From: Acidobacteriota bacterium
GTDB taxonomy: Bacteria; Acidobacteriota; Vicinamibacteria; Vicinamibacterales; UBA8438
DNA length: 64,000 nucleotides
NCBI GenBank assembly: GCA_009861545.1
Contig: VXME01000076.1
Span: forward strand, 75,325-139,324
Direction of reading: 5' to 3'
Below the pieces are notes generated by a model, which was not told where the DNA came from, did no database searches, and worked only from the letters and a program-made list of their open reading frames with translations. Positions 1,314 to 20,408 of this stretch are shown one piece after another (positions within the stretch are counted from its first letter, which is position 1; every line of letters starts with the position of its first letter). The position numbers were made by a program, and so were the translations under genes.

Positions 1314-1323
1314 GTGAGCGCGC

Positions 1324-2871
1324 CTACTGGCCGGCCGGCTTCACCACGGCCACGCTGTTCACGTCCTTCTGGTGCCTCGCGGCGTCGTAGACCCCGCTGT
1401 CCCGCATGATCCGACGCAACAGCTCCGCGGTGTGGTCGGCGCGCTTCACCGTGCCGGTGTAGTGCACCCCGTCCGCGATGCGCAATGGCGTCCAGCCCTC
1501 CTGGCTCTCCGCAAGGAGATCGGCGCCCCGCTCGGCCAGGAACTCCACGATCGGGTTCGCGCCCCGCAGCGCGGCGCCGTGCAGCGCCGTGTAGCCCCGG
1601 TCGTCGGCCCCGTTGACATTGTGATCGCCCAGCTCCCAGGCGAGCTGCACGGCCTCGAACGCCTCCTCGTTGGTCCCGGCGCTCTCGCCCAGGTTGAAGA
1701 TGCCGACCCCGGCCGCCACCATCAGGGGCGACGCGTTGCCCTCGGTCGGCAGCCGCGAGTCGGCGCCGTACTCCGCCAGCAGGCGCATCAGCGGCGGGTC
1801 GGCATGCTTCGCGGCGAGCAGGTACGGCGTGGCGCCGACGCGGTTCAGGTTGTTTCGCTCGCGGTTGTTGAACCGCGCGGTCTGGCGTGCGTTGGGGTCG
1901 GCGCCGTTGTCGAGCAGGAAGCGCGCGAGGGCCAGGGTGTCGACGCGGTCGAGCAGCACCACCGGCGGCATGCCCTTGCCGGAGTTCGGGCGCCGGGTGT
2001 AGGCCAACTGGTGCAACGCGGTCCAGCCCTGCTCCGCCGCGTTGGGATCGGCCCCGCGCTCGACGAGGTACTGCGCCAGCGAGAAGTGCCCGTTCATCAC
2101 CGCGAGCACCAGGGCGCTGGTGCCGATGGTCGGGTCGCGCCGGGCGTCCTCCGGAGCGTCGTCCTCGGTGGCGGGCGGCCGTATGGTGTCGTTGACGTCG
2201 GCCCCCGCTTCGAGGAGCGCCACCACGGCGTCGGCCCTGCCCGCGCGGGCCGCGTACAACAGCGCGGACCAGCCGGCCGTGGAACGTTCGTCGACGGCTG
2301 CGCCGAGCTCGATCAGCGCATGGACGGCGGCCGGATGATTCTCTGCGGCGGCCCAGTGCAGCGCGGTCTGCCCGCGCCAGCTCTCGCGTGCGCGCAGGTC
2401 CGCGCCGCGGGCCAGCAGCAGCCGCAGCACGTCGACGTCGCCGGTCCGCGCTGCGGTCATCAGCACGGTCTCGCCCTCCGGCAGCGTCGTGTTCGGGTCG
2501 GCGCCGGCGTCGAGGAGCGCCTCCACGATGGCCGCGCTGCCGCGGCCGGCAGCCAGTGCGAGCGGGGTGACGCCGTAGCGGTTGGCGGCCTCCACGTCGG
2601 CGCCCGCGCCGAGCAGGAGCCGCGCGGTTTCGACCTGACCCCTGTACGCGGCCCAGTGCAGGGCGGTGGTTCCGTCCGTCTCGGCGCCGTCGACGTCGAC
2701 GTTCCTCTCCAGCAAGGCCCGGACGGCGTCGGCGTCGGCGGCCCGGGCGGCTTCCACCAGGGGCAGATCACGGGCAGGCGCTGCCGTAGCCGTACCGGCG
2801 AGCGACATGCCGAAGACCGCCAGGAGCACAACGCGCAACGACAACCCCGCCACTTTGTCGGCTATCCGCAT
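1324..2871 (-). CDS. secreted ankyrin-repeat protein
   Basis: Start ATG 2871 (MRIADKVAGLSLRVVLLAVFGMSLAGTATA signal). There are many ANK units (TALHWAA..G....LL..GADV). The upstream part of ORF 1324..3174 is non-coding-like. Confidence 0.9.
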   Translation of the reverse strand: MRIADKVAGLSLRVVLLAVFGMSLAGTATAAPARDLPLVEAARAADADAVRALLERNVDVDGAETDGTTALHWAAYRGQVETARLLLGAGADVEAANRYGVTPLALAAGRGSAAIVEALLDAGADPNTTLPEGETVLMTAARTGDVDVLRLLLARGADLRARESWRGQTALHWAAAENHPAAVHALIELGAAVDERSTAGWSALLYAARAGRADAVVALLEAGADVNDTIRPPATEDDAPEDARRDPTIGTSALVLAVMNGHFSLAQYLVERGADPNAAEQGWTALHQLAYTRRPNSGKGMPPVVLLDRVDTLALARFLLDNGADPNARQTARFNNRERNNLNRVGATPYLLAAKHADPPLMRLLAEYGADSRLPTEGNASPLMVAAGVGIFNLGESAGTNEEAFEAVQLAWELGDHNVNGADDRGYTALHGAALRGANPIVEFLAERGADLLAESQEGWTPLRIADGVHYTGTVKRADHTAELLRRIMRDSGVYDAARHQKDVNSVAVVKPAGQ

Positions 2872-2932
2872 TTCGGTTCTCCCCGATCCTGCTTGCTTCG
2901 CGATCTCTCGCGAAATGAACGGCTGCGCTTCG

Positions 2933-3214
2933 TCACTCGCCCGGCGGAGATGCCGTGCCGGCGATCGCGATCTCGACGGCTCGGACGCGATCGTCCAGAC
3001 GCCGGACGTCGGCGCGTACCTCTGCGAGGTCGGTACGCAAGTCGGCGAAGTCCGCCCGCACGTCAGCGAAGTCGGCGCGTACATCCGTTCGCAACGTGTC
3101 GACGGCGCTGGCCAGACGGTCGATCTCACGACTCGTGGAACAGGTGCCGATGGAAATGGAGCCGGCAAGGGCACCGGCGGCTACGAGTATCGTGAGCCTG
3201 TCCGCGCGCTCCAT
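2933..3214 (-). CDS. small membrane-anchored coiled-coil protein (93 aa)
   Basis: N-terminal hydrophobic stretch LTILVAAGALAGSISIG, then five consecutive heptads DVRADFA/DVRADFA/DLRTDLA/EVRADVR/RLDDRVR. It lies 61 bp upstream of the ankyrin gene on the same strand. No clear RBS. Confidence 0.5.
   Translation of the reverse strand: MERADRLTILVAAGALAGSISIGTCSTSREIDRLASAVDTLRTDVRADFADVRADFADLRTDLAEVRADVRRLDDRVRAVEIAIAGTASPPGE
2981..3085 (-). repeat. 5 x 21-bp in-frame tandem repeat (heptad-encoding) inside the small coiled-coil CDS
   Basis: Read directly: codons for DVRADFA are repeated, then diverge over five units. Confidence 0.7.
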
Positions 3215-3357
3215 TGGCCCATGTTATCGCAGATCCGGTCGCCTCTCCACGGGCGATTGTCGTTGACAACCGGTGTGAACGACGTAGGATCTACCGGGTT
3301 GGGGTATCGACTGTCCGGGTGCTTGGCCGGGATCGTGTGCGGCCGCAGGGAAAACCG

Positions 3358-5772
3358 ATGACGCGACGCTTACTCGTCCTCTTCGGCGTCTGGATGGTAG
3401 CCGGGATGGTGTGGCTCGCGCCTGCGGCGACGGCCGGCCCGGGGCAGGATCCTGCTGCTGCGGAGCCCTCGCCGGTAGCCGCCCACGAGGCGCTGCTTCA
3501 GCGCTACTGCCTGACGTGCCACAACGAGCGGCTCGCCGCCCGCGGCACGGTTCCGATCGCGTTGCGCACCGGCGACCTGGCCGACGTGCCGGGCACGGCG
3601 GACGTCTGGGAGAAGGTGATCCGCAAGCTCCGCACGGGTTCGATGCCGCCGGCCGGCAGACCGCGTCCCGAGGCGGAGGCCAGCGACGCGCTCGCGGCCT
3701 GGCTGGAGACCGAGATCGACCGCGTCGCCGCCACCCATCCCAATCCGGGACGGACGGAGCCGCTGCACCGCCTCAACCGCACGGAGTACCAGAACGCGAT
3801 CCGCGATCTGCTGGCGTTCGACGTCGACGCCGCGGCGCTGGTTCCGGCCGACGATCAGAGCTACGGGTTCGACAACATCGCGGGGGTGCTGAAGGTTTCG
3901 CCGACGCTGCTCGAGCGGTACATGAACGCGGCGCGCACGATCAGCCGCCTGGCCGTCGGGGCGTCGCCGCTGGCGCCGGCCGGCGAGACGTTCCGCATCG
4001 TATCGGACCTGTCCCAGTATCAGCATCGGGACGGCCTGCCGTTCGGGACGCGCGGAGGCATGTCCGTCGAGTACAACTTCCCGCGCGACGCCGAGTACGA
4101 GATCGAGCTGGAGCTGCTCGACCTGTTCGCCGGCGCCCCGATCCGCGAGCCGCACCAGCTCGAGCTCAGCGTCGACGGCGAGCGGGTCGCCGTCTTCCAC
4201 CTGACGCCGCCCGACCCCGACCGCGATCAGGGCGCGGCCTACAACCGCGGTCCCGACTCGCTGCGGGCCCGCGTGCAGGTCGGGGCCGGCCCGCGGGTGG
4301 TGACGGCGGCGTTCATCAAGAAGACCAGCGCGCTTGCCGAGAGCGTCCGGCAGCCCTTCGACCGGCCGCACGGCGAAGGCGACTATCTGCTGTACCAGCC
4401 GCATCTGGGCACGCTGACCATCTCCGGCCCGTTCAATACGCTCGGGGCCGGCGACACGCCGTCACGGAGCCGCATCTTCGTCTGCCGGCCGGAGGGCGAG
4501 GCCGGCGAGACGCCGTGCGCGCGGGAGATCATCTCGACGTTGGCGCGGCGGGCCTACCGGCGGCCGGTGACCGCCGCGGATGTCGACGCCCTGCTCGTCT
4601 TCTACGACGAGGGCCGGGCCACGGGCGGCTTCGAGGCCGGCGTCGAGCGGGCGGTCCGCGCCCTCCTCGTGAGCCCCGACTTTCTGTTTCGCGTGGTGTC
4701 GGATCCGCCCGGGACCGCGTCCGGGGCTCCCTACCGCCTGAGCGACCTGGAGCTGGCGTCGCGCATCTCGTTCTTCCTCTGGAGCAGCATTCCGGACGAC
4801 GAGCTGCTGGACGCCGCCGCCGCGGGGCGGCTGCGGGATCCCGGCGTCCTGGAACGGCAGGTGCGGCGGATGCTGGCCGACCCGCGGTCCGAGGCGCTGG
4901 CGAAGAACTTCGCCGGCCAGTGGCTGCGACTGCGCAACATCTCGGGCGCCCTCCCGTCGGACGTGCTCTTCCCCGACTTCGGCGAGAGCCTGCGGCAGGA
5001 CTTCGTCCGGGAGACCGAGCTGTTCTTCGACAGCGTCATGCGCGAGGACCGGAGCGTCACCGAGTTGCTGACCGCCGATTACACGTTCCTCAACGAACGC
5101 CTCGCCCGGCACTACGGCGTAACCGGCGTCTACGGCAGCGATTTCCGGCGCGTGGCGCTGACCGACCGCAACCGGCGCGGCCTGCTCGGCCAGGGCAGCA
5201 TCCTGACCGTCACCTCGTACTCCGACCGTACGTCGCCGGTCGGACGCGGCAAGTGGGTGCTGGAGAACGTCCTCGGGACGCCGCCGCCGCCGCCGCCGCC
5301 CAACGTCCCGGAGCTGGAGCCGGCCGAGGACTCGGGCAGGGTGCTGGCGATGCGCGAGCGGATGGAGCAGCACCGGGCGAACCCGGTCTGCGCGAGTTGC
5401 CATCGGTTGATGGACCCGCTGGGGTTGGCCCTGGAGAACTTCGACGCGGTGGGCCGCTGGCGCGGGCACATGCCGGGCGGCATCGCCATCGACGCGTCCG
5501 GTGCGATGCCCGACGGGACGCCGTTCGACGGCCCCGCGGATCTGCGCGGGCTGCTCGTCCGGAACCCGGAACAGTTCGTCACGGTCGTGGCCGAGAAGCT
5601 GCTGACCTACGCGCTCGGCCGCGGCGTGGAGTACTACGACGCGCCGGCCGTCCGCCGGATCACCCGCGCCGCGGCGGAGCACGACTACGGCCTGGCGTCG
5701 CTCATCGTCGGCGTCGTGAAGAGCACGCCGTTCCAGATGCGGCTGGCCAGGACGGACGCGGCCGCCAACTGA
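3358..5772 (+). CDS. DUF1592/DUF1588/DUF1585-type haem-binding periplasmic protein
   Basis: Start ATG 3358 (MTRRLLVLFGVWMVAGMVWLAPAATA). Has CLTCH haem motif, a poly-Pro GTPPPPPPPN and a second CASCH. The architecture is typical of the DUF1592 family that pairs with DUF1552. Confidence 0.9.
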   Translation: MTRRLLVLFGVWMVAGMVWLAPAATAGPGQDPAAAEPSPVAAHEALLQRYCLTCHNERLAARGTVPIALRTGDLADVPGTADVWEKVIRKLRTGSMPPAGRPRPEAEASDALAAWLETEIDRVAATHPNPGRTEPLHRLNRTEYQNAIRDLLAFDVDAAALVPADDQSYGFDNIAGVLKVSPTLLERYMNAARTISRLAVGASPLAPAGETFRIVSDLSQYQHRDGLPFGTRGGMSVEYNFPRDAEYEIELELLDLFAGAPIREPHQLELSVDGERVAVFHLTPPDPDRDQGAAYNRGPDSLRARVQVGAGPRVVTAAFIKKTSALAESVRQPFDRPHGEGDYLLYQPHLGTLTISGPFNTLGAGDTPSRSRIFVCRPEGEAGETPCAREIISTLARRAYRRPVTAADVDALLVFYDEGRATGGFEAGVERAVRALLVSPDFLFRVVSDPPGTASGAPYRLSDLELASRISFFLWSSIPDDELLDAAAAGRLRDPGVLERQVRRMLADPRSEALAKNFAGQWLRLRNISGALPSDVLFPDFGESLRQDFVRETELFFDSVMREDRSVTELLTADYTFLNERLARHYGVTGVYGSDFRRVALTDRNRRGLLGQGSILTVTSYSDRTSPVGRGKWVLENVLGTPPPPPPPNVPELEPAEDSGRVLAMRERMEQHRANPVCASCHRLMDPLGLALENFDAVGRWRGHMPGGIAIDASGAMPDGTPFDGPADLRGLLVRNPEQFVTVVAEKLLTYALGRGVEYYDAPAVRRITRAAAEHDYGLASLIVGVVKSTPFQMRLARTDAAAN

Positions 5773-5822
5773 ACGCGGAAGAAGAATCAGAGAAAACGGC
5801 TCGCTGATCAGGAGTAGCTGTC

Positions 5823-7175
5823 ATGTTCATCACCAAGACCGCGTTGCCTCGTCGGACGTTCCTCCGCGGGATGGGGGTCACCCTCGGTCTGCCGCTGCTC
5901 GACGCGATGGTGCCGGCCGCCTCGGCGCTGGCGAATACGGCGGCCAAACCGGTCCGGCGTCTCGGCTTCGTCTACATCCCGAACGGGGCGGTGATGACCC
6001 ACTGGCAGCCGGAGGGTGACGGCGCGCTCGACGAGCTGTCGCCCACGCTGAGCCCGCTCGCGCCGTTCCAGGACCAGGTCATCGTCCCGATCGGCCTGAG
6101 CCAGAAGCAGGCCGAGGCGCTCGGCGACGGCAACGGCGAGCACTCCCGGGCCGGGACCGTGTGGCTGAGCGGCGTCCACCCGAAGGAGACCGAGGGCGCC
6201 GACGTCCGCAACGGCATCACGGCGGACCAGATCGCCGCGCAGCACATCGGCGGCGACACGCCGCTGCGGTCGCTCGAGCTGGCGATGGAGCAGACCTACC
6301 TCATCGGCAACTGCGACAACGGCTACAGTTGCGTCTACACGAACAGCATCTCCTGGCGGACGGCGACGACGCCGAACCCGCACGAGACGAATCCGCGCAT
6401 CGTCTTCCAGCGGATGTTCGGCGACGGCGGCACGCGCGAGGAGCGTCTGGCGCAGGTGCAGGAGGATCGCAGCATCCTCGACTGGGTGACCGCCGACATC
6501 GCGCATCTGCAGAAGAAGCTCGGCCCGTCGGACCGCAGCAGCGTGAACGAGTACCTAGACTCGGTGCGCGAGGTCGAGCGGCGGTTGCAGGTGGCGGAAC
6601 GGCAGGGGCGCGAGTCCGTGCTGGAGCTTCCCGACCGCCCGGTCGGGGCCCCGGAGTCGTACGACGAGCACGCCCGGCTGATGTTCGACCTGGTGGCCTT
6701 GGCGTTCCGGGCCGACATCACGCGCGTCTTCGTGTTGACGCTCGGCAAGGAGCAGACCAACCGCGCCTATCCGGAGCTGGGCGTCAACGGCGCCCACCAC
6801 GCGGTGTCGCATCACCAGCACGACCCGCTGAAGTTCGAGCAGGGCCACAAGATCAACCAGTACCACATCGGTCTGACCGCCCATTTCCTGAAGGCGCTGA
6901 AAGCGACGCCCGACGGAGAAGGCAACCTGCTGGACCACTCGCTCGTGCTCCACGGCGGCGGAATCAGCGACGCGAACGAGCACTCGCACATCGACCTGCC
7001 GCTGGTCCTGGTCGGCGGGGCGGGCGGGGTCAAGGGCGGCAAGATCCTGCGGCACTCGAAGGACACGCCGATGAACAACCTGCTGCTGGCGATGCTGGAG
7101 CGGGCCGGCGTGCAAACGGACAAGTTCGGCGACGCCACGGGCAGGCTGCCGCTGGAGCCGCTCTCCGGCGTGTAG
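5823..7175 (+). CDS. DUF1552 domain protein (Tat-signal)
   Basis: MFITKTALPRRTFLRGMGVTLGLPLLDA twin-arginine leader. Canonical partner immediately downstream of the DUF1592 gene. Confidence 0.9.
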   Translation: MFITKTALPRRTFLRGMGVTLGLPLLDAMVPAASALANTAAKPVRRLGFVYIPNGAVMTHWQPEGDGALDELSPTLSPLAPFQDQVIVPIGLSQKQAEALGDGNGEHSRAGTVWLSGVHPKETEGADVRNGITADQIAAQHIGGDTPLRSLELAMEQTYLIGNCDNGYSCVYTNSISWRTATTPNPHETNPRIVFQRMFGDGGTREERLAQVQEDRSILDWVTADIAHLQKKLGPSDRSSVNEYLDSVREVERRLQVAERQGRESVLELPDRPVGAPESYDEHARLMFDLVALAFRADITRVFVLTLGKEQTNRAYPELGVNGAHHAVSHHQHDPLKFEQGHKINQYHIGLTAHFLKALKATPDGEGNLLDHSLVLHGGGISDANEHSHIDLPLVLVGGAGGVKGGKILRHSKDTPMNNLLLAMLERAGVQTDKFGDATGRLPLEPLSGV

Positions 7176-7318
7176 CGGGCCGTCGCGAATCGCTCACGGC
7201 GAGCCGGTCGGCGCCGCAGCGTGACGGCGCCGGCCGGCTCTTCGCCTGTACGAAGCTGCGGCCGTCGGCGGCGAGCCCCCGCCCGCCGGAGCGACGGCGG
7301 GCAGTGGTTCTCCGGTGC

Positions 7319-9064
7319 TCACACGAGCGGCTTGGTGTCCACGGTCACGGTCAGCACGTCGAGATCGTAGAACTGCTCGTGCCGCACTTCCTTCGCCACG
7401 TGGCGCAGGATGCGCGGCCCCACGTCCCTGAGCACCGAGTACTCCTCGTGCTCTTCGTCCAGCGCGTCGAGTCGGGCTTCCAGGTTGGCGCTGTCGGGGC
7501 CGCTCGCGAGCTCGATCTGCAGAAGGTCGTCCACCGGCCTCACTGCGACGCGGATCGGATGCGACTTCGACTCGGCCTGTCGGTCGAGCAGATACTGGAA
7601 CGCTTCCTCGCCCGCCAGCTCGAGACGGCTGGTGGCGACGTCGTCCCAACCGGCGCGTTCCGCGGCGGCGTCCAGCACGGCGCGCAGCTTCGACTGCGAC
7701 CGTACGCTCGGCTCCAGCACGATGTGTGGGCCGCGCTGTCCGAGGGACACGAGCAGGGTGAGGGCCATGGCGACGATGCCGCCGGCCGCCATGCCGTTGT
7801 CGAGCACGCCCCTGGACCATTCGGGCAGGTGGTCCGGGAAGATGACGCCGTACTGGAAGCCCAGGCCCATCCAGAACGAGATGCAGACGATGAGGCCCTT
7901 CTCGTAGTCGAACCCGCCCGTGGTGACCATGCGCACGCCCTGCCGGAACAGCAGGACGATGAAAATGAAGATGTACGCGCCGGCGACCGGGTCGGGTACT
8001 ACCTGCAGCACCGCCGCGATCTTGGGTACGAACGCCGCCAGAACGATCATGATCCCGGCGTAGAGAGCGACGCGCCGCGCGGCCACGCCGGTCAGGTCGG
8101 CGATGGAGATGCTGCTGGAGTACGTCGTGTTCGGCACGGTACCGGCGAGGCCGGAGAGCAGGTTGCCGACGCCGTCCGCGTTCAACGCCCGTTGAACCAC
8201 CTTGAAGTCCACCGGCACCGGGGTGCGGTGGGACACGCGCTGTATCGCGATGGCGTCGCCGTAGGTCTCGATGGCGCCGATGATCGTGACGATGATGAAG
8301 GGGACGAGCAAGCCGAAGAACCGCGCATCGAGCGACAGGTCCAGTCCGGGCCAGCCGGTCCGCGGCAGGCCGAACCAGCCGGCGTTCAGCAGCGGCGCCC
8401 AGTCGAGGATTCCGGCCAGGCCGGCGACTGAGGTTCCCACCAGAATGCCGATGAACGGGGCCCACAGGCGGGTCGCGCCGCGGGCGTAGAGCGACACCAG
8501 GGTGATGGCCGCGAAGGTCGCGAAGGCTACCAGCGGTCCGCTCATGGACAGGCGGTCGATGCCGGGGGGAACGCCGGCCAGCAGATCGGTCGTAATGGGA
8601 AAGACGTTGACGGCGAGCAGCATGATCACCGTACCGCCGACCGTCGGCGTGATGAGCCGGCGGAAGAACGACAACCGTGCGGAAAAGAAGAACTGCACCA
8701 GCGCCGAGGCGGCCACGAGCGTCCCCAGCAGCGGCAGGCCGCCGGTGGCCACCGCCGCCGCCGAAACGCCGATGAAGGCCCCTGACGTGCCCATGTAGAG
8801 GGGATAGCCGGCGCCTATCGGTCCTGCCGGTCGGGCCTGCAGGATGGTCGAGAGGCCGCTGACGGCCAGGGCCGCGAACACCGCCCACTCCAGTCCCTCC
8901 GGGTAGCCCGCCGCGTTCAGCACGATGATCGGGACGAGAATGATCCCGGTCAGGACGAGGGTGACGACCTGCAGACTGAGGCCGATCGTCAGTCCCTCCG
9001 ACGGTGTTTCGTCCACCGCGTACCGCAGGCGGGAATTCGAGGTCGATGCATCACTTGCGCTCAT
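7319..9064 (-). CDS. NCS2 (xanthine/uracil/vitamin C) family permease fused to a C-terminal cytoplasmic anti-sigma/HATPase-like domain
   Basis: Start ATG 9064 (MSASDAST). It has about 12 hydrophobic helices with an NCS2-like pattern. The C-terminal ~150 aa is soluble (RLELAGEEAFQYLLDR...IRVAVRPVDDLLQIELASG). Confidence 0.8.
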   Translation of the reverse strand: MSASDASTSNSRLRYAVDETPSEGLTIGLSLQVVTLVLTGIILVPIIVLNAAGYPEGLEWAVFAALAVSGLSTILQARPAGPIGAGYPLYMGTSGAFIGVSAAAVATGGLPLLGTLVAASALVQFFFSARLSFFRRLITPTVGGTVIMLLAVNVFPITTDLLAGVPPGIDRLSMSGPLVAFATFAAITLVSLYARGATRLWAPFIGILVGTSVAGLAGILDWAPLLNAGWFGLPRTGWPGLDLSLDARFFGLLVPFIIVTIIGAIETYGDAIAIQRVSHRTPVPVDFKVVQRALNADGVGNLLSGLAGTVPNTTYSSSISIADLTGVAARRVALYAGIMIVLAAFVPKIAAVLQVVPDPVAGAYIFIFIVLLFRQGVRMVTTGGFDYEKGLIVCISFWMGLGFQYGVIFPDHLPEWSRGVLDNGMAAGGIVAMALTLLVSLGQRGPHIVLEPSVRSQSKLRAVLDAAAERAGWDDVATSRLELAGEEAFQYLLDRQAESKSHPIRVAVRPVDDLLQIELASGPDSANLEARLDALDEEHEEYSVLRDVGPRILRHVAKEVRHEQFYDLDVLTVTVDTKPLV

Positions 9065-9326
9065 CGAGTGGCAGCTCCGTTCACGTGTGCGCCGCAGTGC
9101 GCTTGCGGACGGTTCGAGAGTCGTGGGAACTATAGCGCAACGGGTTGGCACGTATGGCGCAACCTGGACTCCCGTCAAGCGCACCACGGCGCACGGTCAA
9201 TCAACGAGCGGGTGCCGAGATCGACACATCCCTGCCGTATCGTCGACTCTGGTACGCCTCGTGCGTTCATGCACCCGACAGCGGCGTTGCGGCTGCATGG
9301 CCGAGTTGCCATGTAGAGTACCAGTG

Positions 9327-10649
9327 ATGATCGACCGCATCGTCGTCGAGAACTTCAAGAGCCTGCGGCGGGTGGATCTGCGCCTGGGGCGAATGAACCT
9401 GTTCGTCGGCGCCAATGCCAGCGGCAAGTCGAACTTCCTCGACCTGCTCCGCGTGCTGCAGGGTATCGGCAACGGCTTCACCATCAGCGAGATTCTGGAC
9501 GGCAAGCCGCGGAGCGCGACCAGCGCGGTGTGGGACGGCATCCGCGGCGGAAGCCGCCGGGCCTGCTTCGCGAGTGCCGCCGAGGGCCTCGGCGGCGGTG
9601 ACGTGACCATCGAGGTGCATGGCAGGTTCGCGGGTGGCCCTGATTCGCCCCGGGTCGGAGTGCAGGAGCCGGATTCCCAGGGTGAGCTCGCATCGAATTG
9701 GGAACTCTTGATCGCATTCTCGCCGACGACGAGGGGCGTGACCCGAGAGCGCTTCAAGGTGGACACTGTCATCTACGACACCGATCGCGTCGAGGGCTTC
9801 TCGGAGAAGGACGCGAAGCTACGGATCTGGTGCCCGGTCGAAGGCTCACAAGGCTGGTCCGTGGAGTTGCAGCGCACAAGTCCCGCATTGGGGCAGCTCC
9901 AGCGAAGAGTGTGGCGCCTCGATTCCGGGCTAAGAGACGGTGCGTCATCGGAGCAGTCGGAAGAAGCGTGTGGAGCTTGCCGGTACCTCGCTCGCGGGGT
10001 GGCCAGGTTGCTGGCGAACATCCAACCGATAGAGCCTGAATTGTCGATGCTGCGCGCCTATTCGCAGGTTGCCGAGGTGCAGCGCATGGGCGAACGCGGC
10101 GAGGACTTCGCGGCCCTCGTTCAGACCCTATGTAAGGACGACAGGACGAAGGACGCCTACCTGTCCTGGCTTCGCCAGCTTCGTCCCGAGGAGGTCGATG
10201 ACGTCGGCGTGCGGCAGGGCGCCATGGGCGAGCCGCTGTTCGTATTGAAGGAGAACGGCCGGGAGTTCCCCGCGGCAATCCTCAGCGACGGCACCCTGCG
10301 CTTCGCGGCGCTCGCGGCCGCGTTCTTCCAGCCGGACATGCCCGATCTGATGACGATAGAAGAGATCGAGAACGGGATTCACGCGAATCGTGCGCGACTG
10401 CTGCTGGAACTGCTGCGCAGCCAGTCTGCGGCGGCGAATACGCAGGTGGTCGCAACGACACATTCGGCGGCGGTGCTCGACTGGCTTGAGGAAGAGGACT
10501 ATCGGACGACGTTCGTCTGCAGGCGGGACGAGGAGACGGGCGAGTCGCGGATTCGTGCGCTGGCGGACGTGCCGCGTTTCATCGACGTTGTGAAGAGGAA
10601 GCCGGTTTCCGAGCTGCTCTCGGAGGGCTGGCTGGAAGCGGCGCTGTGA
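9327..10649 (+). CDS. ABC-type AAA family ATPase (AAA_15/AAA_21-like, defence-associated type)
   Basis: Start ATG 9327 (MIDRIVVENFKSLRRVDL). Walker A GANASGKSN, signature-like LSDGTLRFAALAAAF and Walker B-like LMTIEEIENGIH are present. The stop overlaps the next start (GTGA at 10646-10649). Confidence 0.85.
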   Translation: MIDRIVVENFKSLRRVDLRLGRMNLFVGANASGKSNFLDLLRVLQGIGNGFTISEILDGKPRSATSAVWDGIRGGSRRACFASAAEGLGGGDVTIEVHGRFAGGPDSPRVGVQEPDSQGELASNWELLIAFSPTTRGVTRERFKVDTVIYDTDRVEGFSEKDAKLRIWCPVEGSQGWSVELQRTSPALGQLQRRVWRLDSGLRDGASSEQSEEACGACRYLARGVARLLANIQPIEPELSMLRAYSQVAEVQRMGERGEDFAALVQTLCKDDRTKDAYLSWLRQLRPEEVDDVGVRQGAMGEPLFVLKENGREFPAAILSDGTLRFAALAAAFFQPDMPDLMTIEEIENGIHANRARLLLELLRSQSAAANTQVVATTHSAAVLDWLEEEDYRTTFVCRRDEETGESRIRALADVPRFIDVVKRKPVSELLSEGWLEAAL

Positions 10650-11220
10650 GCTTCCGCGTACTCGTCATCCCGGAAGATCCGACTTGGAACGGGTACATCC
10701 TGAAGCCCCTGACCAAGAAGTTGATGGAGAGCGCGGGGAAAACCCAAGGCCAGGATAGAAGTGCTGTCCAAGCCGCACCTCCGCGGCTATGCGGACGCGC
10801 TGCGGGCCATTCGTGAGGAACTTCCCGACGGCTACGGATTTCTTCGACCTCTGGTTGTTCTTTCCTGACGCCGACCGCGCGGGGGAAGACGCAATGGCAC
10901 GCCTGGAGGCTGACATCCAAGCCAGAGGTATCGCGCTGCTCTGCTGTCCCGCAGAGCCGGAGGTCGAGATCTACGTCTGCGTCGGGTTTCAGGACGATCT
11001 GCCGGGCGGTTGGCAGGATGCTCGCAGGCATCCTCGGATGAAGGAGGAAGTCTTCGGGCCGCTGCTGCAGAGGCACGGCGATCCAAGGCGGGCGGGCGGC
11101 GGCAGAGACCAGATGATCGAGAGGTCGCTTCAGAACCTGCAACGGCTGTTTCAGTTGTGTCCCGAGACGCAGCGGCTGCGAGATCGGATCGCGGCGCACG
11201 TCGAGGCGGCTGATGCATAA
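10646..11220 (+). pseudogene. TOPRIM-like (DUF4276-like) partner of the AAA ATPase, disrupted by two +1 frame shifts
   Basis: Sensible protein is only obtained by joining three frames: VSFRVLVIPEDPTWNGYILKPLTKKLMESAGK / KARIEVLSKPHLRGYADALRAIREELPDGYGF / (F)DLWLFFPDADRAGEDAMARLEA...AAHVEAADA. The shifts fall near 10735-10745 (G4A4C3 run) and 10839-10845 (TTTCTTC). The E...DxD pattern (IPED; PDAD) is TOPRIM-like. Confidence 0.6.
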
Positions 11221-11228
11221 TTGCAGCG

Positions 11229-12848
11229 ATGACCATGAAGATTCCCACGTTGCGGTGCCTCGTTTTCCTCGTGACGGTCTCGGTGCTCGGCACCGCCGCG
11301 GCCGCCGCCCAGGACCTGCGGATCGTGACCGCCGCCGCGGATCAGGACCGGGAGGCGGTGCTCGCGCTCCTCGATGAGGGGATCGACGTCAACACGGCAC
11401 GGCCCGACGGCGTGACCGCACTGCTCTGGGCGGCGCACCGGGACGACGTCGAGCTGGCGGAGCGGTTGCTCGCCGCCGGTGCCGACGTGAACGCGTCCGA
11501 CGACCACGGCGTGACCGCTCTGGAGCGCGCGGCCGAGAACGCGAGCGTCGCCATGGTCGAGACGCTGTTGGCGGCGGGCGCCGACGTCGACGCGGCGCAG
11601 ACCAGCGGGCTCACCCCCCTGATGACCGCTGCGCGAACCGGCGGCGCCGATGTGGTGCGCCGGCTCATCGCGGGCGGGGCGGACGCCAACGCCGCGGTGA
11701 CCGCGACCGGGAGCACGGCGCTGATGTGGGCGGTCTCGGAACGGCATCCCGAGGTCGTGCGGCTGCTGCTCGCCGCGGGCGCCGACCCGCGCGCCTCGAC
11801 GCTAAAGGGGTTCACGCCGCTGATGTACGCGGCCCGCAACGGCGACATCGCCGCCGCGGCGACGCTCATCGCGGCCGGCAGCGACGTCAACGAGCCGAGC
11901 GCCGACGGCACTCACGTGCTGCCGTTCTCGATAGTCAGCGGCCAGGACGCGTTCGCCCTGTACCTGCTGGACCAGGGCGCCGACCCCAACGGCGAGATGG
12001 GCGGCGTCTCCGCCCTGCACGCGGCGGCCGGCAACGTCAGTCCGTGGCTTCTCGAGTGGTATCGCCGCCACGGCCGCAACCGTCTCTATGCCGGTCTCGG
12101 GGGCGTGCGGTTGAGCGCGGCTCGCCGCCTTGCCCTGGTGGAGGCGCTGCTCGAGCGCGGGGCCGATCCGAACGGCCGGATCACCGCGTGGGCGATGATC
12201 ATGAACTACATCGGCTATCCGCGTAAGGGCGCCTTCGAACCCTTCGCCTGCGGTACCGGCGACCTTCGCGGCGCGACCCCGCTATGGGTGGCGGCCTACG
12301 ACATGAACGGCGCGCGGGGGCAGGCACACGTCTTCGCGGTGATGCCGAGCGCTACGACGACCGGCGTCGAGGTCATGCGGGCGTTGCTCGATGCGGGCGC
12401 CGACCTGCACCTGACGACCAGTGACGGGACGACTCCCCTGATGGCGGCGGCGGGTCTCGGCCCCGCCACCTACACGCCGCGCGAGCCCCGCGGCGTGCGA
12501 GCCCGCAGCTCGGAGCGCGCGGTCGAGTTCCTGCACCGCGCCGGCGCGGACATCAACGCCACCAACGAGGCGAACTTCACGGCGCTTCACGGCGCGGCGT
12601 TCCGCGGCATGAACGAGGTCATCGAGTACCTGGTGCAGAATGGCGCGGACATCGACGCCCGCGACTTCCGGGGCAGGACCGCCTACCGCATGGCCGAGGG
12701 CTCGAAGCAGTCGTTCCAGTTCCAGAGCTGGCCCGAGACGGCGGCGCTCCTCGCCCGGCTGGGGGCCAACACCGAGCTCGGGATCCCCGGCACGGTCCAG
12801 GAACGGCTGCGCGACATCCCGGTCGACGCCGCGAACGACCAGCCGTGA
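11229..12848 (+). CDS. secreted ankyrin-repeat protein (paralogue of 1324..2871)
   Basis: Signal MTMKIPTLRCLVFLVTVSVLGTAAAAAQ. Has repeated ANK units and a C-terminal region collinear with the first ankyrin protein (..FTALHGAAFRGMNEVIEYLVQNGADI..). Confidence 0.9.
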   Translation: MTMKIPTLRCLVFLVTVSVLGTAAAAAQDLRIVTAAADQDREAVLALLDEGIDVNTARPDGVTALLWAAHRDDVELAERLLAAGADVNASDDHGVTALERAAENASVAMVETLLAAGADVDAAQTSGLTPLMTAARTGGADVVRRLIAGGADANAAVTATGSTALMWAVSERHPEVVRLLLAAGADPRASTLKGFTPLMYAARNGDIAAAATLIAAGSDVNEPSADGTHVLPFSIVSGQDAFALYLLDQGADPNGEMGGVSALHAAAGNVSPWLLEWYRRHGRNRLYAGLGGVRLSAARRLALVEALLERGADPNGRITAWAMIMNYIGYPRKGAFEPFACGTGDLRGATPLWVAAYDMNGARGQAHVFAVMPSATTTGVEVMRALLDAGADLHLTTSDGTTPLMAAAGLGPATYTPREPRGVRARSSERAVEFLHRAGADINATNEANFTALHGAAFRGMNEVIEYLVQNGADIDARDFRGRTAYRMAEGSKQSFQFQSWPETAALLARLGANTELGIPGTVQERLRDIPVDAANDQP

Positions 12849-13895
12849 CGCTGCGCGCAACGGGACGACCAAAGAAGGCGCCGCCCGGCTATCCGTGGGA
12901 GGTGGTCGGCAGCACGCCGTACGCCGAGTCGTTCGACCTCGTGGCGGCCGACGACAACCTGAGCCGCGCCACGATCGAGGGCTGGGTCCAGCGTGCCACT
13001 GCCGAGGCCTTGTTCGAGATGGCGGGGCTCGACTTCGAGGAGGCGAAGCAGCAGGCGGCCTACCGCACGTTCGAGCCCATTCCGCTCGGGGTGACCGGGT
13101 CGCTGCGGATTCGGAACGAGCTGCGGCGCATCGACTCGCAGAACGTCATTGCGAAGATCGAGGGCAGCGGGGCCCCCGACGAGGTCGTCATGTACGTCGC
13201 CCACTGGGACCACATGGGCGTCGACCCGAGCCTGGAAGGCGATCAGATCTTCAACGGGGCGGCCGACAACGCCACCGGCACCGCCGGGCTCATCGAGATC
13301 GCGCGCGCGTTCACCCATGCGGAGGAGCCGCCGCGCCGGTCGATTCTGTTCCTCGCGGTGACGGCCGAGGAGCAGGGCCTGCTCGGATCGCGGCACTACG
13401 GGGAGAACCCGCTCTACCCGGCCGCGCAGACCGTCGCCGCGATCAATATGGACGTCCTCAACCAGTGGGGTCGGACGCGCGACATGACCATCGTCGGGGT
13501 GGGCCAGTCGGAGCTGGACGACGTGGCCGCCGACGTGGCCGCGCGCCTCGGACGCACCCTGGCGCCGGATCCGGAACCGGAGAAGGGCTTTCTACTACCG
13601 GTCGGACCACTTTTCGTTCGCCAAGGCGGGCATCCCCGCGTTCTACGGCGACCCCGGCGTGGAGTACATCGACAAGCCGGAGGGCTACGGCATCGAGAAG
13701 CGCACGGAGTACACGGTGAACGACTACCACAAGGTGTCGGACGAGGTGAAGCCCGACTGGGACCTGTCGGGGGCGCTCGAGGACCTGACGTTCATGTACC
13801 ACATGGGCGCCCGGCTCGCGGCGACCGACGAGTGGCCGGTGTGGAGCGAGACCAGCGAGTTCCGGGCGATCAGGGAGGCGCAGCGGCCGCAGTAG
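12845..13895 (+). pseudogene. M28 family metallopeptidase remnant (5'-truncated, one frameshift)
   Basis: M28 motifs VMYVAHWDHMG, NGAADNATG and FLAVTAEEQGLLGS are present. The frame changes at TTT 13589-13591, where EKGF|[20 protein letters not shown] continues in the 13659..13895 frame. There is no signal peptide or N-terminal/PA region. The ORF begins at a GTG overlapping the ankyrin stop. Confidence 0.75.
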
Positions 13896-13950
13896 GGACG
13901 GGAGCGCCGACCGGGACGGCGTGAAATCGCGCTGCCCCGAGTCGGTCGCC

Positions 13951-15048
13951 TCAGCGGACCCGATGGCTGAGGCGGCGCCAGAAATCCGCTTCGTCGGTCG
14001 CGGCCAGCGCCGCCGCCGTCACCGTATCTCGCGGCGTGTCGACGAGGGTCGGTGCGCGCTGCATGAACGCGTCCGACACCCGCTTTCCGCGCGCTTGCAG
14101 CAGGCTCTGCACGGTCGCCGCCAGTTCCTCGGCGCGACCTTTCGCGAGGCCTTCCGCGTGACCCTGTGCAACGCCTTCCGCGCGGCCCTTTGCGACACCT
14201 TCGGCACGACCCTGCGCGACGCCTTCCGCCAGCTTGCGTTCGCCCAGCACGCGCCACAGCGGATCGTCGTCGGGACCGGTTCCCTCCCGCTCGCCGAGCG
14301 TCCGTCCCACGCGCTCCAGCACCCGGTAGGTCGCGGCCGACGACACCAGCTCGGTCAATGCGGCGTGGATTTCCTTCGCCGTCCAGCCCGGAAACGCCCC
14401 GCTCGTCCGCGCGTACTGGAACCGGCCGTTCACCAGCCGATGAATCGTCAACCCGGCGGGACGCCGCCGCGTGGCCCCCGGCGGCACGACCACCCACAGC
14501 TCGGGGAAGCCCCACGCCTCGTAGAGCAGCAGCTTGCCGGGTCGCACGTCGGTTGTATGGTCCACCTCGAGCACCACGTCCGGGAAGTCGTTCTCGCCGA
14601 TAATCAGGGACTTCACGGGCGTCGCAGCGCGCGTCGGGTGCAGGTAGAGCGTCTCGTCGGCCTCCATCGCCCGCTGGGCCCGGCCGTCGGCATCCCGCAC
14701 CAGCAGGGTGACCGATCCGTACGAGATGATCGGCGTGCCGCGCACCGAGGCGATTCGTTCCGCCAGGTGGGGTAGCCGCCGCGAGGTTCCTTCGTGAACG
14801 CCGTACTTGTCGGCAACCACCCAGGCGGTCCCGGTCCGGGCGTCCCAGTGCTCGATGCGGTCGTCGAAATCCGCGAACTCCTCCCGCGTGAGCGAGATGG
14901 GCTGGCAGCCCGGGAACCGGAGCGCCTCGTAGTCCACCGACTCGCCGCGCGGCGGGTCAGAGGCCGTTGCGTCTGGTGTTTGTGTTCCGTCGCCGCCGCG
15001 CGCGGACAGCGGCGGCAGGTCCGCGTGAGGCATTCCCCATGTTAGCAC
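13951..15048 (-). CDS. Uma2-family (DUF820) PD-(D/E)xK endonuclease fused to a DUF4351-like C-terminal repeat/helical domain
   Basis: Uma2-like core ..PDVVLEVDHTTD..., then the repeats AEGVAQGR/AEGVAKGR/AEGVAQGH/AEGLAKGR and a C-terminal helical tail. Alternative start ATG at 15033. Confidence 0.75.
   Translation of the reverse strand: MLTWGMPHADLPPLSARGGDGTQTPDATASDPPRGESVDYEALRFPGCQPISLTREEFADFDDRIEHWDARTGTAWVVADKYGVHEGTSRRLPHLAERIASVRGTPIISYGSVTLLVRDADGRAQRAMEADETLYLHPTRAATPVKSLIIGENDFPDVVLEVDHTTDVRPGKLLLYEAWGFPELWVVVPPGATRRRPAGLTIHRLVNGRFQYARTSGAFPGWTAKEIHAALTELVSSAATYRVLERVGRTLGEREGTGPDDDPLWRVLGERKLAEGVAQGRAEGVAKGRAEGVAQGHAEGLAKGRAEELAATVQSLLQARGKRVSDAFMQRAPTLVDTPRDTVTAAALAATDEADFWRRLSHRVR
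14134..14229 (-). repeat. 4 x 24-bp in-frame tandem repeat (AEGxAxGx octads) within the Uma2 fusion gene
   Basis: Read directly from sequence. A degenerate fifth unit lies at 14110-14133. Confidence 0.8.
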
Positions 15049-15086: not shown

Positions 15087-18000
15087 TCAGGGTGCTGAGA
15101 GTGTGGTTTTCGCCAACTCCAGGAAGCGGCAGAAGGGGTTGGCCAGGCGCATCTGTTCCGGGGTGCGGCAGTCCGGCGTGAGGAGGTCGGGACTGGCGAC
15201 GATGGCCGCCACGCAGCGGGCGCGGGAGGTGGCGACGTTGAGGCGGTGCAGGCTGTAGAGGAACGCCATCCCGCGCGGCGCCTCGTCGGCGGTCGAGGTG
15301 GCCATCGAGTAGATGGCGATCGACGCCTCCTGTCCCTGGAACTTGTCCACGGTGCCGACCCGTGCGCCTTCCGGCAGCGCCGCCCGCAGGGCTGCGACGT
15401 GCGCGTTATAGGGCGCCACGACCAGGATGTCCCGCAGCGTCAGCAGCTTCTGTTCACCTTCCTTGTCGATCCAGGCCGCGCCGGCGGCGAGCAGCTCGCC
15501 GAACAGCGCCGCGACGCGGTCGGCTTCCTCCGTTGAGGCGTTCGTGTTGCCGGCGTGCTCCACCGGTACGAAACGCAGGCCGTGTCCCGCCAGCGGGCCC
15601 GGTCCGACCACCGTCTGCCGAGCCAGCTCCGGGCGCGTGCCGAGCCGGCCCTCGTAGAACTGTTCCGTCGTGAACGCGCAGACTTCGGGGTGCATGCGCC
15701 AGGTGTGCTCGAGGAAGACGCCGCGGGACGGGCCGACGGTTGCCGATTCGCCCAGCAGGTGGCCGAGCGCCGAGACGTCGGCGCCGGGCGGGTGGACGCC
15801 CTGGATCGGCTGATCGAGCTGGCGCGGGTCGCCGAGCAGCACCAAGCTCTGCGCTGCCTGGCAGACGGCGAGGGTGTTGGCGAGGCTCATCTGGCCCGCC
15901 TCGTCGATCACCAGCACGTCCACCGCGTCGGCCATCTCCGGGCGGGACCACAGCCATGCGGTGCCGCCGGCGAGGTTGGCGTCGCCATTGGAGAGCGCCT
16001 CGGCCACTGTTTCGTTCGAGTGGGTCCGGACGATGCGTTCGTCCGGGCAGCCGTCGCCGTCGTTGGCCTTCTGGATCCCCCGGACATCGACAGCCGCGGG
16101 CTCGGCCGCCACGCCGCTTTGCTCGCGCCCGGGCCGCGCTCCTTCGCCGGGGCGCTCGTCCATCGCCCTGCACACGGCGCCGAGCAGGTTGGAGATCACC
16201 TTGTGGCTGTTGGCCGTCACGCCGACCCGCTTTCCGCCGGCCAGCAGGTCGAGGATCATCCGCGCGCCGGTGTAGGTCTTGCCGCTGCCGGGCGGTCCCT
16301 GCACCGGGAGGACGGAGCGGTCCAGCCGCGGGGCGATCCGCCGGACCGCATCCAGCGGTGCTTCTTCGGGAGCGACGAGGTTTTCGAGAGCAACGGCGTC
16401 TTCGGGAGCGGCGCCGTCCTCCAGAGGGAAGAGGCTCAGTGGATTGGCTCGAGGCTTCGCCGTCTCGAGACGCGGCGGCACGCGCCGCAGCAGGTCGAAG
16501 GCAGCACGACGCGCGCTCTCCGCCGCGAACCCGTCGGACGCCATGTCCCGGCCGAGGCGGAGCAGGCTGTCCCGCAACACCTGGCTGTTGACGGCGTCGA
16601 GCGGAACCAGTGCGGTCGGCTGGGGAACGGGCGAGTTGCGCCCGCGCTTCAGATCGATCGTGCGCTCCGCTTCGTCGAGCGCAACCACTGTCCCGCAGAA
16701 ACCCCGCTTGCGCTCGTCGGATTCGGCGGTGTCGGGGTTCTTCGGCGAGTCACCCACCTCGATCTCGTGCGTCTGCTCCGGGAAGCGGTATCGATGGACG
16801 ATCGACTTCTTGACCTGCCCCACCTCGCCCACGTAGCTGAGCGCGCCGAGCGTCGCCCGGCTGGCCACGTGCTCCTCCGCGCTGAAGCCGCAGCGGTCGA
16901 AGAACTCCCACCACATGGACTTCTCCTCGCGCCGGTGGAACTCCAGCAGGTGCGCCAGCAGCCGCCGCCCACGCTGCTCGTCGTCGAGTCCGTCGTCTCC
17001 CTCCGGCAGTCCAGCGGTGAGCGCCTCGAACAGCGCCGCGATCTCCGCCGCCGATTCCCGCTCCTGGTCGCGTTCTTCGTCCCGTACCGCGGGCCGCGGC
17101 ACTGGCTGTCCTGTCAACGCCTCCAGATCGTGCCGGCATCCCGCCAGCCACTCGGCCAGCCGCAGCGTCGACAGGCAGTCGTCGCGGTTGTAGCCCTCTA
17201 TCTCGGCGCGGAGGGCGTTCGCCGTGCCGTGCGCCTCGCCCGACTCCAGCGCCGCCTCGAACCGGACCAGCGCCCGTGTTGCGGTCGTCAGGTCGATCCG
17301 GCGCACGAAGCCGTAGAACGGCTCCAGCTTCTTGATGGAGTACCCCTCGACCGAGGCGCGCAGCCCCTGGCGGACCACCCGGTGCAGGTCGACGAAGACG
17401 CGCCCGCGCAGCAGCCGATCCACCTCTTCCTCGCGGGTGGCGTAGCGGCTCATCAGGCGCTTGACCGCGGTCGTCTCGTAGGCGCCGTAGTGGTAGATGT
17501 GGAAGCCCGGATACTCCCGCCAGCGCGCCGTGACGCGGTCGATGAAACGCTCGAACGCACGCTTCTCGGCCGGTTCGTCGAGCGCCCAGCAGCCGTCGTA
17601 TCTGCCGTGCCGATCCGCGGCCCCGAAGAGGTACTCGAACCCGCCGTTCATTGCGAAGGCATCGCCTTCGAGATCGAAGAAGAGGTCGCCCGGCGAGGTT
17701 TCCGGCAGCGCGGCGAGTCCCTTGTCTTCCTGGACCGGCGTGATCAGCTCGTGCATGCGCCGGCCTTCACGCCGTCCCTGATCCTGGATGCGCGCCTGCT
17801 CCCGGATCCGAAGCAGCGCGTCGTGGCTCACGCCGTCCGGCGGCGGAGACGCCGTCGGGTCGAGCGCCCCGAGACCCGCCATCGTCGTCACGCCCCGGTC
17901 GACCAGCTTGCGCCGCTGCCTGCGCGTGATCCCGGCGACCAGCGACAGGTGATCGTCAGTGCGTCGGCGATCCGCACAGCCCTGCTTCCAGTCGCAGAGC

Positions 18001-18826: not shown

Positions 18827-19081
18827 ATGAGCCGAAGCCGGCTGCTTCTACAGCGGATTCTCGCCGGTCGCTCGGATGCGAATCTGCGCTTCGACGACCT
18901 GCGTGTCTTGCTCCGGGAACTTGGATTCATCGAACGCGTGCGGGGAAGCCATCACATATTCAGGAGGGAGGGTGTTACCGAGAGAATCAACTTGCAGCGT
19001 GACAATGGCCAGGCCAAGCCCTATCAGGTGCGGCAGGTGCGTCACGTGATCCTGAAGTACGGGCTGAAGGTGAACGAGTGA
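18827..19081 (+). CDS. hicA: HicA-family mRNA interferase toxin
   Basis: Start ATG 18827. FDDLRVLLRELGFIERVRGSHHIF and a KPYQVRQVRHVI-type C-terminus are typical of HicA (YcfA-like). Overlaps the next gene. Confidence 0.85.
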   Translation: MSRSRLLLQRILAGRSDANLRFDDLRVLLRELGFIERVRGSHHIFRREGVTERINLQRDNGQAKPYQVRQVRHVILKYGLKVNE

Positions 19082-19293
19082 TGTACAAGTACGAGATCAT
19101 TCTCTACTGGAGCAAGGTCGATGGCGTGTTCGTTGCCGAGGTGCCCGAGCTTCCCGGGTGCATGGCGCACGGCGACACGCAGGAAGCCGCTCTCGGTAAT
19201 GTCAACGAGGCGATGGAACTCTGGATCGATACGGCGAGAGAATCAGGTGACCCCATACCGGAGCCCAAGGGTGAACGTCTGATGTTGGCATAG
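19078..19293 (+). CDS. hicB: HicB-family antitoxin (UPF0150 fold, short form)
   Basis: YKYEIILYWSKVDGVFVAEVPELPGCMAHGDTQEAALGNVNEAMELWI. GTG 19078 or ATG 19081 overlaps the hicA stop. Confidence 0.85.
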   Translation: MMYKYEIILYWSKVDGVFVAEVPELPGCMAHGDTQEAALGNVNEAMELWIDTARESGDPIPEPKGERLMLA

Positions 19294-20153: not shown

Positions 20154-20408
20154 GTGCATCTTGATGACGATTCACTGCTCGCCGAACCGGGCATCCGGCG
20201 AGCGTTCGCCACGGCGCTGTATCGCGACCGCAGCCTGTCGCTCGGACAGGCCGCGCGATTCTCGGAGCTCAGCATCGCCGAGTTCATCCGGCACGTGTCT
20301 CGGCTCGGGATTCCTGTCGTCGGTGGCACTTCGGACACCGTCCGCGAGGACGCCGAGGCGATCATCGAATGGCGGGGCGGCTCGTCGCAGCCGACGCGAG
20401 CCCGTTGA
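20154..20408 (+). CDS. UPF0175 family antitoxin-like protein
   Basis: RRAFATALYRDRSLSLGQAARFSELSIAEFIRHVSRLGIPV is the typical UPF0175 HTH pattern. Confidence 0.75.
   Translation: MHLDDDSLLAEPGIRRAFATALYRDRSLSLGQAARFSELSIAEFIRHVSRLGIPVVGGTSDTVREDAEAIIEWRGGSSQPTRAR

Follow-up and report, generated by a model that had tools for sequence, protein, structure and literature searches.

The window analysed here, a 64-kb stretch of contig VXME01000076.1 from an Acidobacteriota bacterium, carries at 9327-11220 two overlapping genes that we consider likely to be a coupled module pairing an ABC ATPase with a Toprim-fold effector, with the effector inactivated in this strain. The small effector gene is disrupted by two independent 1-nt insertions, the ATPase gene upstream of it is untouched, and what remains of the module is a dead remnant.

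Structure of the module

The features of the module are as follows.

9327-10649, + strand: intact ABC ATPase gene, 440 amino acids, AAA_15/AAA_21 type (open reading frame and translation)
10646-10649, + strand: GTGA overlap, the GTG start of the small gene lying over the TGA stop of the ATPase gene
10646-10741, + strand: small gene segment 1, codons 1-32, frame of 10646
10646-10816, + strand: 56-residue peptide, sole product from the coupled start, with 32 native residues and the rest out of frame
10739-10742, + strand: A4 run with the first 1-nt insertion (A3 in the intact allele)
10743-10838, + strand: small gene segment 2, codons 33-64, +1 frame relative to segment 1
10789-11220, + strand: 143-residue open reading frame (ORF) of gene finders, with a spurious N-terminus and the native C-terminal 126 residues
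10839-10841, + strand: T3 run with the second 1-nt insertion (T2 in the intact allele)
10840-11220, + strand: small gene segment 3, codons 65-190 plus stop

The initial annotation of this DNA had described an ATPase gene whose GTGA terminus overlaps a unit of about 190 codons, readable only when three frames are joined, with +1 shifts near 10735-10745 and 10839-10845, and all of these elements are present. The stop-start overlap implies translational coupling of the two genes. The small gene spans 190 codons and is continuous only after joining MSFRVLVIPEDPTWNGYILKPLTKKLMESAGK in the frame of 10646, PKARIEVLSKPHLRGYADALRAIREELPDGYG in the next frame and FFDLWLFFPDADRAGE onwards, in the third frame, to the stop at 11220. 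An invariant glutamate, Glu10 (10673-10675, within VLVIPED), is encoded by segment 1, and the motifs Asp74-x-Asp76 (10867-10875) and Glu105-x-Glu107 (10960-10968) are encoded by segment 3. Translation from the coupled GTG stops after 56 residues, so no Toprim domain can be made.

The repaired protein is identical at 189 of 190 residues to an intact 190-residue protein, P0001 (sole difference G62S), which is encoded on a syntenic ENA contig (L001) that matches the window at 99.2 % identity over 12.2 kb (window 648-12885). Base-level alignment to L001 places the insertions precisely: GGGG-AAA-CCC has become GGGG-AAAA-CCC at 10739-10742, and GGA-TTC has become GGA-TTTC at 10839-10841. Insertions aside, the small gene differs from L001 by three substitutions, and the ATPase gene differs by three nucleotide substitutions that result in a single amino acid change (I409V). 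Comparison with orthologous loci, proposed as a check in the initial annotation, finds the gene intact in L001, and all close relatives examined (L001, L005, L064 and L088-L092) have AAA and TT at the two sites.

Authenticity of the insertions

An exact look-up of the ATPase protein places the window sequence on ENA scaffold ENGE20-1_SAMN12347671_METAG-scaffold_147, and the broken sequence recurs base for base in four assemblies made from two biosamples with two assemblers (ENA SAMN12347671, ENA SAMN12347672, Logan SRR9841446 and Logan SRR9841447). Each of the four contigs runs unbroken across both insertion sites, the Logan contigs without a branch. This agreement indicates a real pseudogene rather than random sequencing error, and homopolymer error, the caveat originally attached to the inactivated effector, is now unlikely.

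A sequencing or assembly artefact, with a true gene of 190 continuous codons and an extra A and T as homopolymer errors, would fit the location of both insertions in short A/T runs amid GC-rich DNA. The lesions were checked in assemblies rather than reads, a single study, and apparently a single clonal strain, underlies all four assemblies (the ENA pair being clonally identical), and a platform-systematic error is conceivable. We nonetheless consider an artefact very improbable, given that the same bases were recovered from two biosamples by two independent assemblers, that the scaffolds are of short-read type (they contain N gaps), and that such platforms are not prone to errors in runs of 3-4 nt. 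The distribution of frame-breaking lesions relative to L001 also argues against it: two fall in the small gene and two in a neighbouring M28 peptidase gene, the ATPase, ankyrin, permease and DUF1552 genes are free of them, and pseudogenes rather than random error would be expected to give such clustering. One of the M28 lesions is a microhomology deletion of 820 bp, which is impossible as a base-calling error.

It is also conceivable that the gene is still expressed, through programmed +1 slippage, of the ribosome or during transcription, at AAA-A and TTT-C or as a phase-variation switch, and +1 re-pairing at AAA|A and TTT|C would indeed give back the exact wild-type residues. Two independent slips would be required, however, and no stimulatory structure or rare-codon context is evident, though no search aimed at these was made. 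We reject both programmed frameshifting and phase variation, which strike us as scarcely credible, because the runs are just 4 and 3 nt long, far below tracts known to slip, and are absent from all relatives, including the eight loci with AAA and TT listed above.

The neighbouring M28 peptidase gene (window 12845-13924) is itself a double-hit pseudogene relative to L001. Its deletion, between short repeats with a junction at about 12880-12885, takes out the intergenic region and the first 214 codons of the gene, and an extra T at 13589-13591 (GGC-TTC to GGC-TTTC) leaves the remainder split into ORFs 12845-13924 and 13659-13895. The window also lacks a single nucleotide of L001 at two other positions, 7275, which is intergenic, and 5752, near the end of the gene at 3358-5772, where the last 17 residues of a PSD/PSCyt-domain protein are replaced by 5 different ones, leaving it 12 amino acids shorter. 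Frame tracking by G+C content at third codon positions (GC3) recovered the M28 frameshift and was too noisy for a window-wide frameshift census.

The ATPase

The translated ATPase contains Walker A (GANASGKSN), signature (LSDGTLR), Walker B/D-loop (IEEIENGIH) and H-loop (TTHS) motifs; LSDGTLRFAALAAAF, which the initial annotation had listed together with GANASGKSN and IEEIENGIH, is also read in it, and the protein is 440 amino acids long by ORF call. Both relevant Pfam models score above their thresholds (AAA_21, 1.7e-29, 104.3 bits with a cut-off of 27; AAA_15, 1.8e-16, 61.1 bits with a cut-off of 32.1), which together with the four motifs places the protein in the AAA_15/AAA_21 clade. Among PADLOC models, the best matches are PDC-M07A (1e-56), HEC-01A (1.4e-38) and AriA (8e-30), followed by AbiLi (about 8e-21) and mad3 (1e-20); the Old model matches over the N-terminal P-loop region only (5.9e-13). 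A search of PDB sequences returned a weak match to the N-terminus of RecF alone. The AlphaFold2 (AF2) model of the ATPase (predicted local distance difference test score, pLDDT, 72) has the retron and Septu PtuA ATPases, Rad50, Thermus OLD and GajA as Foldseek neighbours, with E values of 1e-11 to 1e-9. Judged by sequence and fold neighbours, the protein is an ABC ATPase of defence type, and the earlier description of the locus as a defence-type module holds on this side.

The small protein

Homologues of the repaired small protein number 568, are about 188 amino acids long (nearly all 185-195) and form 378 clusters at 50 % identity in an exhaustive search. The repaired window protein matches no Pfam, NCBIfam or PADLOC model, and direct scans gave one weak DnaG-like match (E 0.007) and nothing else. 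Neither it nor P0001 matches DUF4276 (PF14103, gathering threshold 30.2 bits) at E <= 1, and no direct match of the window protein to a DUF4276, DUF4435 or TOPRIM_OLD profile was found. The original assignment to a DUF4276/TOPRIM-type protein therefore stands as remote homology rather than as a direct profile match, and it is the relatives of the window protein that match DUF4276, RloB and HEC-01B.

These relations were drawn from an alignment of 86 family members, each of which was scanned against the profiles. DUF4276 is matched by 26 of the 86 members at E < 0.1, one of them above the gathering score, and RloB by five. The bridging member P0247, labelled PF14103 in the database, scores 31.9 bits against DUF4276 over profile positions 7-191 of 192 and matches P0001 at a phmmer E value of 1.2e-13; hhalign aligns the close family (alignment A1) with P0247 at a probability of 98.6 % (E 6e-16), and this alignment keeps the ED, DxD and ExE motifs of both in register. 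PADLOC HEC-01B is matched by 15 members (best E 6.7e-7), AbiLii by three, PDC-M31B and mad4 by a few, and the NCBIfam MAD4 model by one (E 0.069). Homology to DUF4276 is thus established through transitive and profile evidence, on which we conclude that the small protein belongs to a divergent, unmodelled branch of that family. DUF4276 and RloB have been placed in the Toprim superfamily (PMC12065111).

Conservation and the structural model agree with such a placement. E10, D74 and E107 are invariant in the 86-sequence alignment, and D11, D76, E105, R126, K132, G152, R153, C171 and E173 are nearly so. The AF2 model of the small protein (pLDDT 97.6) has the order b1-a1-b2-a2-b3-a3-b4-a4 followed by a helical C-terminal half, with strands at residues 4-9, 36-39, 68-72 and 97-99 and helices between them. 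Along the chain, E10 directly follows b1, D74 and D76 follow b3, and E105 and E107 follow b4, so that the Toprim layout, with its alternation of strands and helices, a Glu after b1 and a DxD after b3, is present, bearing out the arrangement first read from VLVIPED and the DxD motif. Among viral folds, the closest match to the small protein is RloB-like (E 4.7e-4, probability 1.0). We take a Toprim-type metal-dependent nuclease to be the most likely function of the small protein.

Some members of the family called for separate inspection. Relatives of 164 amino acids were rejected as further truncations and are start-calling artefacts, because their N-terminal 26 codons are open, and the 623-residue P0342 was rejected as an ATPase-effector fusion, its N-terminal extension being spurious. 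P0273 (108 amino acids, NCBI MYN65844.1) could not be traced to DNA, and a scan of JGI metagenomes for either allele returned zero matches. In five close alleles of this 164-residue length from other samples (P0274, P0276, P0279, P0286 and P0281, loci L088-L092), the nearly invariant D11 is replaced by glycine, giving IPEGP for IPEDP, and P0281 carries C171Y besides.

Gene pairing and restriction operons

Across a census of 80 loci from GTDB species representatives, an ATPase homologue lies directly upstream in most cases, its end coinciding exactly with the start of the small gene, with an NTGA stop-start overlap at 70 of the 76 loci whose start could be placed. Represented among the loci are Vicinamibacterales, Thermoanaerobaculia, Gammaproteobacteria, Burkholderiales, Verrucomicrobiota, Spirochaetia, Binatia, Planctomycetota and Anaerolineae. 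Protein identities of 40-70 % between such taxa indicate horizontal spread, and identities of 55-68 % reach across at least six phyla. In the window, GC3 is 0.82 and 0.75 for the two genes compared with 0.89-0.95 in their neighbours, and the composition suggests that this Vicinamibacterales-like acidobacterium, too, probably acquired the module horizontally.

Clustering of flanking ORFs shows that the pair is often embedded in a restriction locus. At 19 loci both flanks are present, the pair sitting tightly between a 1049-residue N6_N4 DNA methylase and a ResIII protein of about 1040 amino acids, on the same strand, in a four-gene operon resembling a type III R-M (restriction-modification) system; one or both of these flanks are found at 27 loci, and about a quarter of loci lie between mod and res. 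This same embedded-cassette arrangement served to nominate the HEC and PDC candidates (bioRxiv 10.1101/2024.01.29.577857). The embedded copies include the following.

L011, L014, L015, L016, L023, L025, L027, L034, about 1400-9700 in each: pair embedded between methylase and ResIII genes
L035, L039, L043, L053, L060, L062, L073 and others, about 1400-9700 in each: the same arrangement

The window copy stands alone, with no Mod or Res gene and no second copy of the ATPase or small gene in the 64 kb.

Patterns of decay

Within the census, the small gene alone is disrupted at ten loci, the ATPase gene alone at two (L053 and L005) and both genes at one (L072). The disruptions at L057 and L074 reflect runs of N in scaffolds and were dropped from the census. 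The lesions of the small gene are diverse, those at L073, L067 and L079 being losses of three kinds that arose independently.

L064, L066, L070, L071, L077: frameshifts or stops
L073, 4257-6000: insertion of an ISL3 transposase gene (PF01610, 2e-75) at codon 89
L065, L067, L076: 3' deletions
L067, 6001-6300 (one of the preceding three): deletion after codon 100, with the same downstream ankyrin gene as in the window
L079, 6001-6340: in-frame deletion of codons about 47-116, removing the DxD and ExE motifs

Since the L067 locus is orthologous and belongs to a related species, its effector loss was an independent event. Although the ATPase gene is 2.3 times longer, disruption is biased toward the effector (10 vs 2; binomial P = 2e-4). 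Some of the disrupted census loci come from long-read metagenome-assembled genomes, in which indel errors are possible, but random indel error should strike the longer ATPase gene more, not less, and an effector bias is not what such error predicts; two of the effector-only cases, L066 and L070, are short-read assemblies. Loss of the effector with retention of the ATPase is the commonest decay route of the family, and the bias fits a costly or toxic effector of the kind typical of abortive-infection nucleases.

A third ATPase-only disruption, at L088, lies outside the census. There (1602-2926), as at L005 (1-980), the ATPase gene is frameshifted and the small gene open, with small proteins at about 93 % and 97 % identity, respectively. 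The module therefore decays in different ways inside one species-level group, with the proviso that L005 and L088 are long-read-style assemblies in which error is possible.

Proposed function of intact copies

By analogy with characterized systems, we infer nuclease activity, a defence role and a sensing mechanism for the intact copies. The 440-residue ATPase would serve as sensor and scaffold, and the 190-residue DUF4276-like protein would be a metal-dependent nuclease effector with a predicted acidic site formed by Glu10, Asp74-x-Asp76 and Glu105-x-Glu107. Sensing of a phage cue, in an ATP-dependent manner, would release or activate the nuclease, on the analogy of PARIS, AbiL and MADS Mad3/Mad4, and the nuclease would then cut nucleic acid (DNA or tRNA) and so abort the infection. 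Copies embedded in restriction operons may act jointly with mod/res. In the window strain, the effector cannot be made and the module is therefore inert; that the ATPase is intact may mean no more than that its own decay is still to come.

Several observations weigh against this reading. Besides the single-study origin of the four assemblies, the long-read origin of some disrupted loci and the lack of any model match for the window protein itself, a Foldseek search against PDB returned at best a generic a/b fold (E 0.018), none of the 50 best matches listed being a Toprim structure, and PDB sequences searched with a profile yielded no Toprim protein, so neither route gave significant similarity to a solved Toprim. 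In E. coli, the related HEC-01 pair failed to protect against those phages that were tried (bioRxiv 10.1101/2024.01.29.577857).

The HEC-01 and PDB results leave room for a different view, in which the pair is real and broken but its small member has a role other than that of nuclease effector, perhaps regulating the ATPase or serving it as an adaptor or antitoxin; alternatively, the pair might be a non-defence module with a part in, for example, DNA repair or mobile-element maintenance. The nuclease role of DUF4276 proteins is itself a prediction, and the Pfam description of AAA_21 as a 'putative AbiEii toxin' would put the toxicity in the ATPase. We regard this view as unlikely, however, for several reasons. 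The family has an invariant E...DxD...ExE acidic constellation at the loop positions of Toprim enzymes; it is related to RloB, AbiLii, HEC-01B and mad4, the last of which is needed for MADS defence (bioRxiv 10.1101/2023.03.30.534895); and it is repeatedly embedded within type III R-M operons. A toxic effector, moreover, would be expected to show the preferential loss seen for the small gene, and an antitoxin would not. A nuclease effector controlled by the ATPase remains our preferred reading of the intact pair.

Surroundings of the module and significance

The module is flanked by a permease gene and an ankyrin gene, with the M28 peptidase gene nearby. The features around it are as follows.

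1324-2871, - strand: large ankyrin-repeat protein
11229-12848, + strand: large ankyrin-repeat protein, within 12 kb of the preceding one
13951-15048, - strand: Uma2-like protein with a C-terminal AEGVAQGRAEGVAKGR repeat tract
15087-18674, - strand: 1195-residue protein with PD-(D/E)xK, RNase_H_2 and superfamily 1 helicase (AAA_11/12/30) domains
18827-19293, + strand: HicA/HicB pair, low GC3 (0.73)
20154-20635, + strand: UPF0175/DUF2283 pair

The toxin-antitoxin pairs and the large PD-(D/E)xK protein sit a few kb downstream of the module, in what appears to be an accessory or defence-rich region. Searches of the window for tRNAs and Rfam elements found neither. The sample labels ENGE20-1 and KELL22-1 (the latter for L089-L092), together with the ankyrin-rich context, suggest a sponge (Ircinia) symbiont as the setting, though only by inference.

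For this genome, the finding has little consequence, as the locus is a dead accessory module among several decayed genes of the region, and a pseudogenised accessory module is ordinary. The wider family is of more interest. We propose tentatively, at a little under an even chance, that its intact relatives constitute an uncatalogued anti-phage family, in which a coupled ABC ATPase and a divergent DUF4276/Toprim nuclease (E-DxD-ExE) occur in at least six phyla, often between type III mod and res genes, with an effector toxic enough to be lost preferentially. With 568 homologues in 378 clusters, a sizeable family is missed on its effector side by current Pfam, NCBIfam and PADLOC models, and because that side is unmodelled, scans of the DefenseFinder or PADLOC type would report an orphan ATPase only. 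The unmodelled effector family, its type III R-M embedding and its effector-biased decay will be of modest use to specialists; the embedding and the preferential loss of the small gene could steer experiments on the poorly understood ATPase + DUF4276/RloB class, for which an intact, near-identical allele exists (P0001 on L001).

Comparison with known systems

The initial annotation had likened the module to PARIS and OLD systems. The likeness in logic stands as the probable mode of working, and membership in either family does not. PARIS shares the two-gene combination of an ABC ATPase with a Toprim effector, and its AriA models match the window ATPase at 8e-30; in PARIS, a trigger-dependent release of AriB is followed by tRNA cleavage (PMC11464382), and by analogy PARIS offers the best working model for the action of an intact copy. 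AriB, however, is a DUF4435 Toprim protein of about 35 kDa (about 300 amino acids) whereas the partner here has 190 residues and 21 kDa, no AriB model is matched, and the ATPase is closer to other families than to AriA. OLD and GajA likewise combine an ABC ATPase with a Toprim site built from a Glu and a DxD, and Thermus scotoductus OLD (6p74) and GajA (8u7i) are among the fold matches of the ATPase model, with E values of about 1e-10 to 1e-9. In those proteins, ATPase and Toprim are fused, whereas here they are encoded by separate overlapping genes, which sets the module outside that family; nor does any sequence or Foldseek match tie the small protein to the OLD Toprim domain, and the GajB helicase partner of Gabija has no adjacent counterpart at the window module.

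The closest relatives of the ATPase lie in HEC-01 and PDC-M07, PADLOC candidates that pair an ABC ATPase of family FAM_00005 with a small partner in the same ATPase-first, two-gene layout and whose A components are its best matches (E values above). A Toprim-like character and an OLD-type metal site have been ascribed to HEC-01B (bioRxiv 10.1101/2024.01.29.577857), a component that is unmatched by the window protein and weakly matched by the 15 relatives noted above. PDC-M07, whose function is that of a candidate only, is matched in its A component, but PDC-M07B is matched by neither the window protein nor any of the 86 relatives, and the module does not belong to it.

MADS Mad3/Mad4 couples an AAA15/21 ATPase with a DUF4276-type partner and is tied to a DNA methyltransferase system, much like the mod/res-embedded relatives described here. 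Deletion of mad3 or mad4 reduces MADS defence, both being required for full defence (bioRxiv 10.1101/2023.03.30.534895), and MADS3-4 has been grouped with AbiL among ABC-ATPase/TOPRIM systems (PMC11464382, Fig. 6c for MADS3-4). The window module is not a MADS member, as its ATPase scores 105.6 bits against the NCBIfam MAD3 cut-off of 420, MAD4 is matched only by the one relative at E 0.069, and the window contains neither the mandatory MAD6-8 genes nor any methylase.

RloA/RloB and AbiLi/AbiLii each pair an AAA_21 ATPase with an RloB-type Toprim protein; Rlo genes sit inside type I R-M loci, and AbiL is a lactococcal abortive-infection system. The module shares their domain logic, and the RloB-like viral fold match, the RloB Pfam and AbiLii matches of five and three of the 86 relatives, and the AbiLi match of the ATPase (7.6e-21) point the same way, although the relation is more distant than that to DUF4276. 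Embedding in restriction loci is common to both, though the relatives studied here lie in type III-like mod/res operons rather than type I loci and the window copy stands by itself. The module is therefore best filed under the known ABC-ATPase + Toprim (DUF4276/RloB) class, as an uncatalogued member of it.

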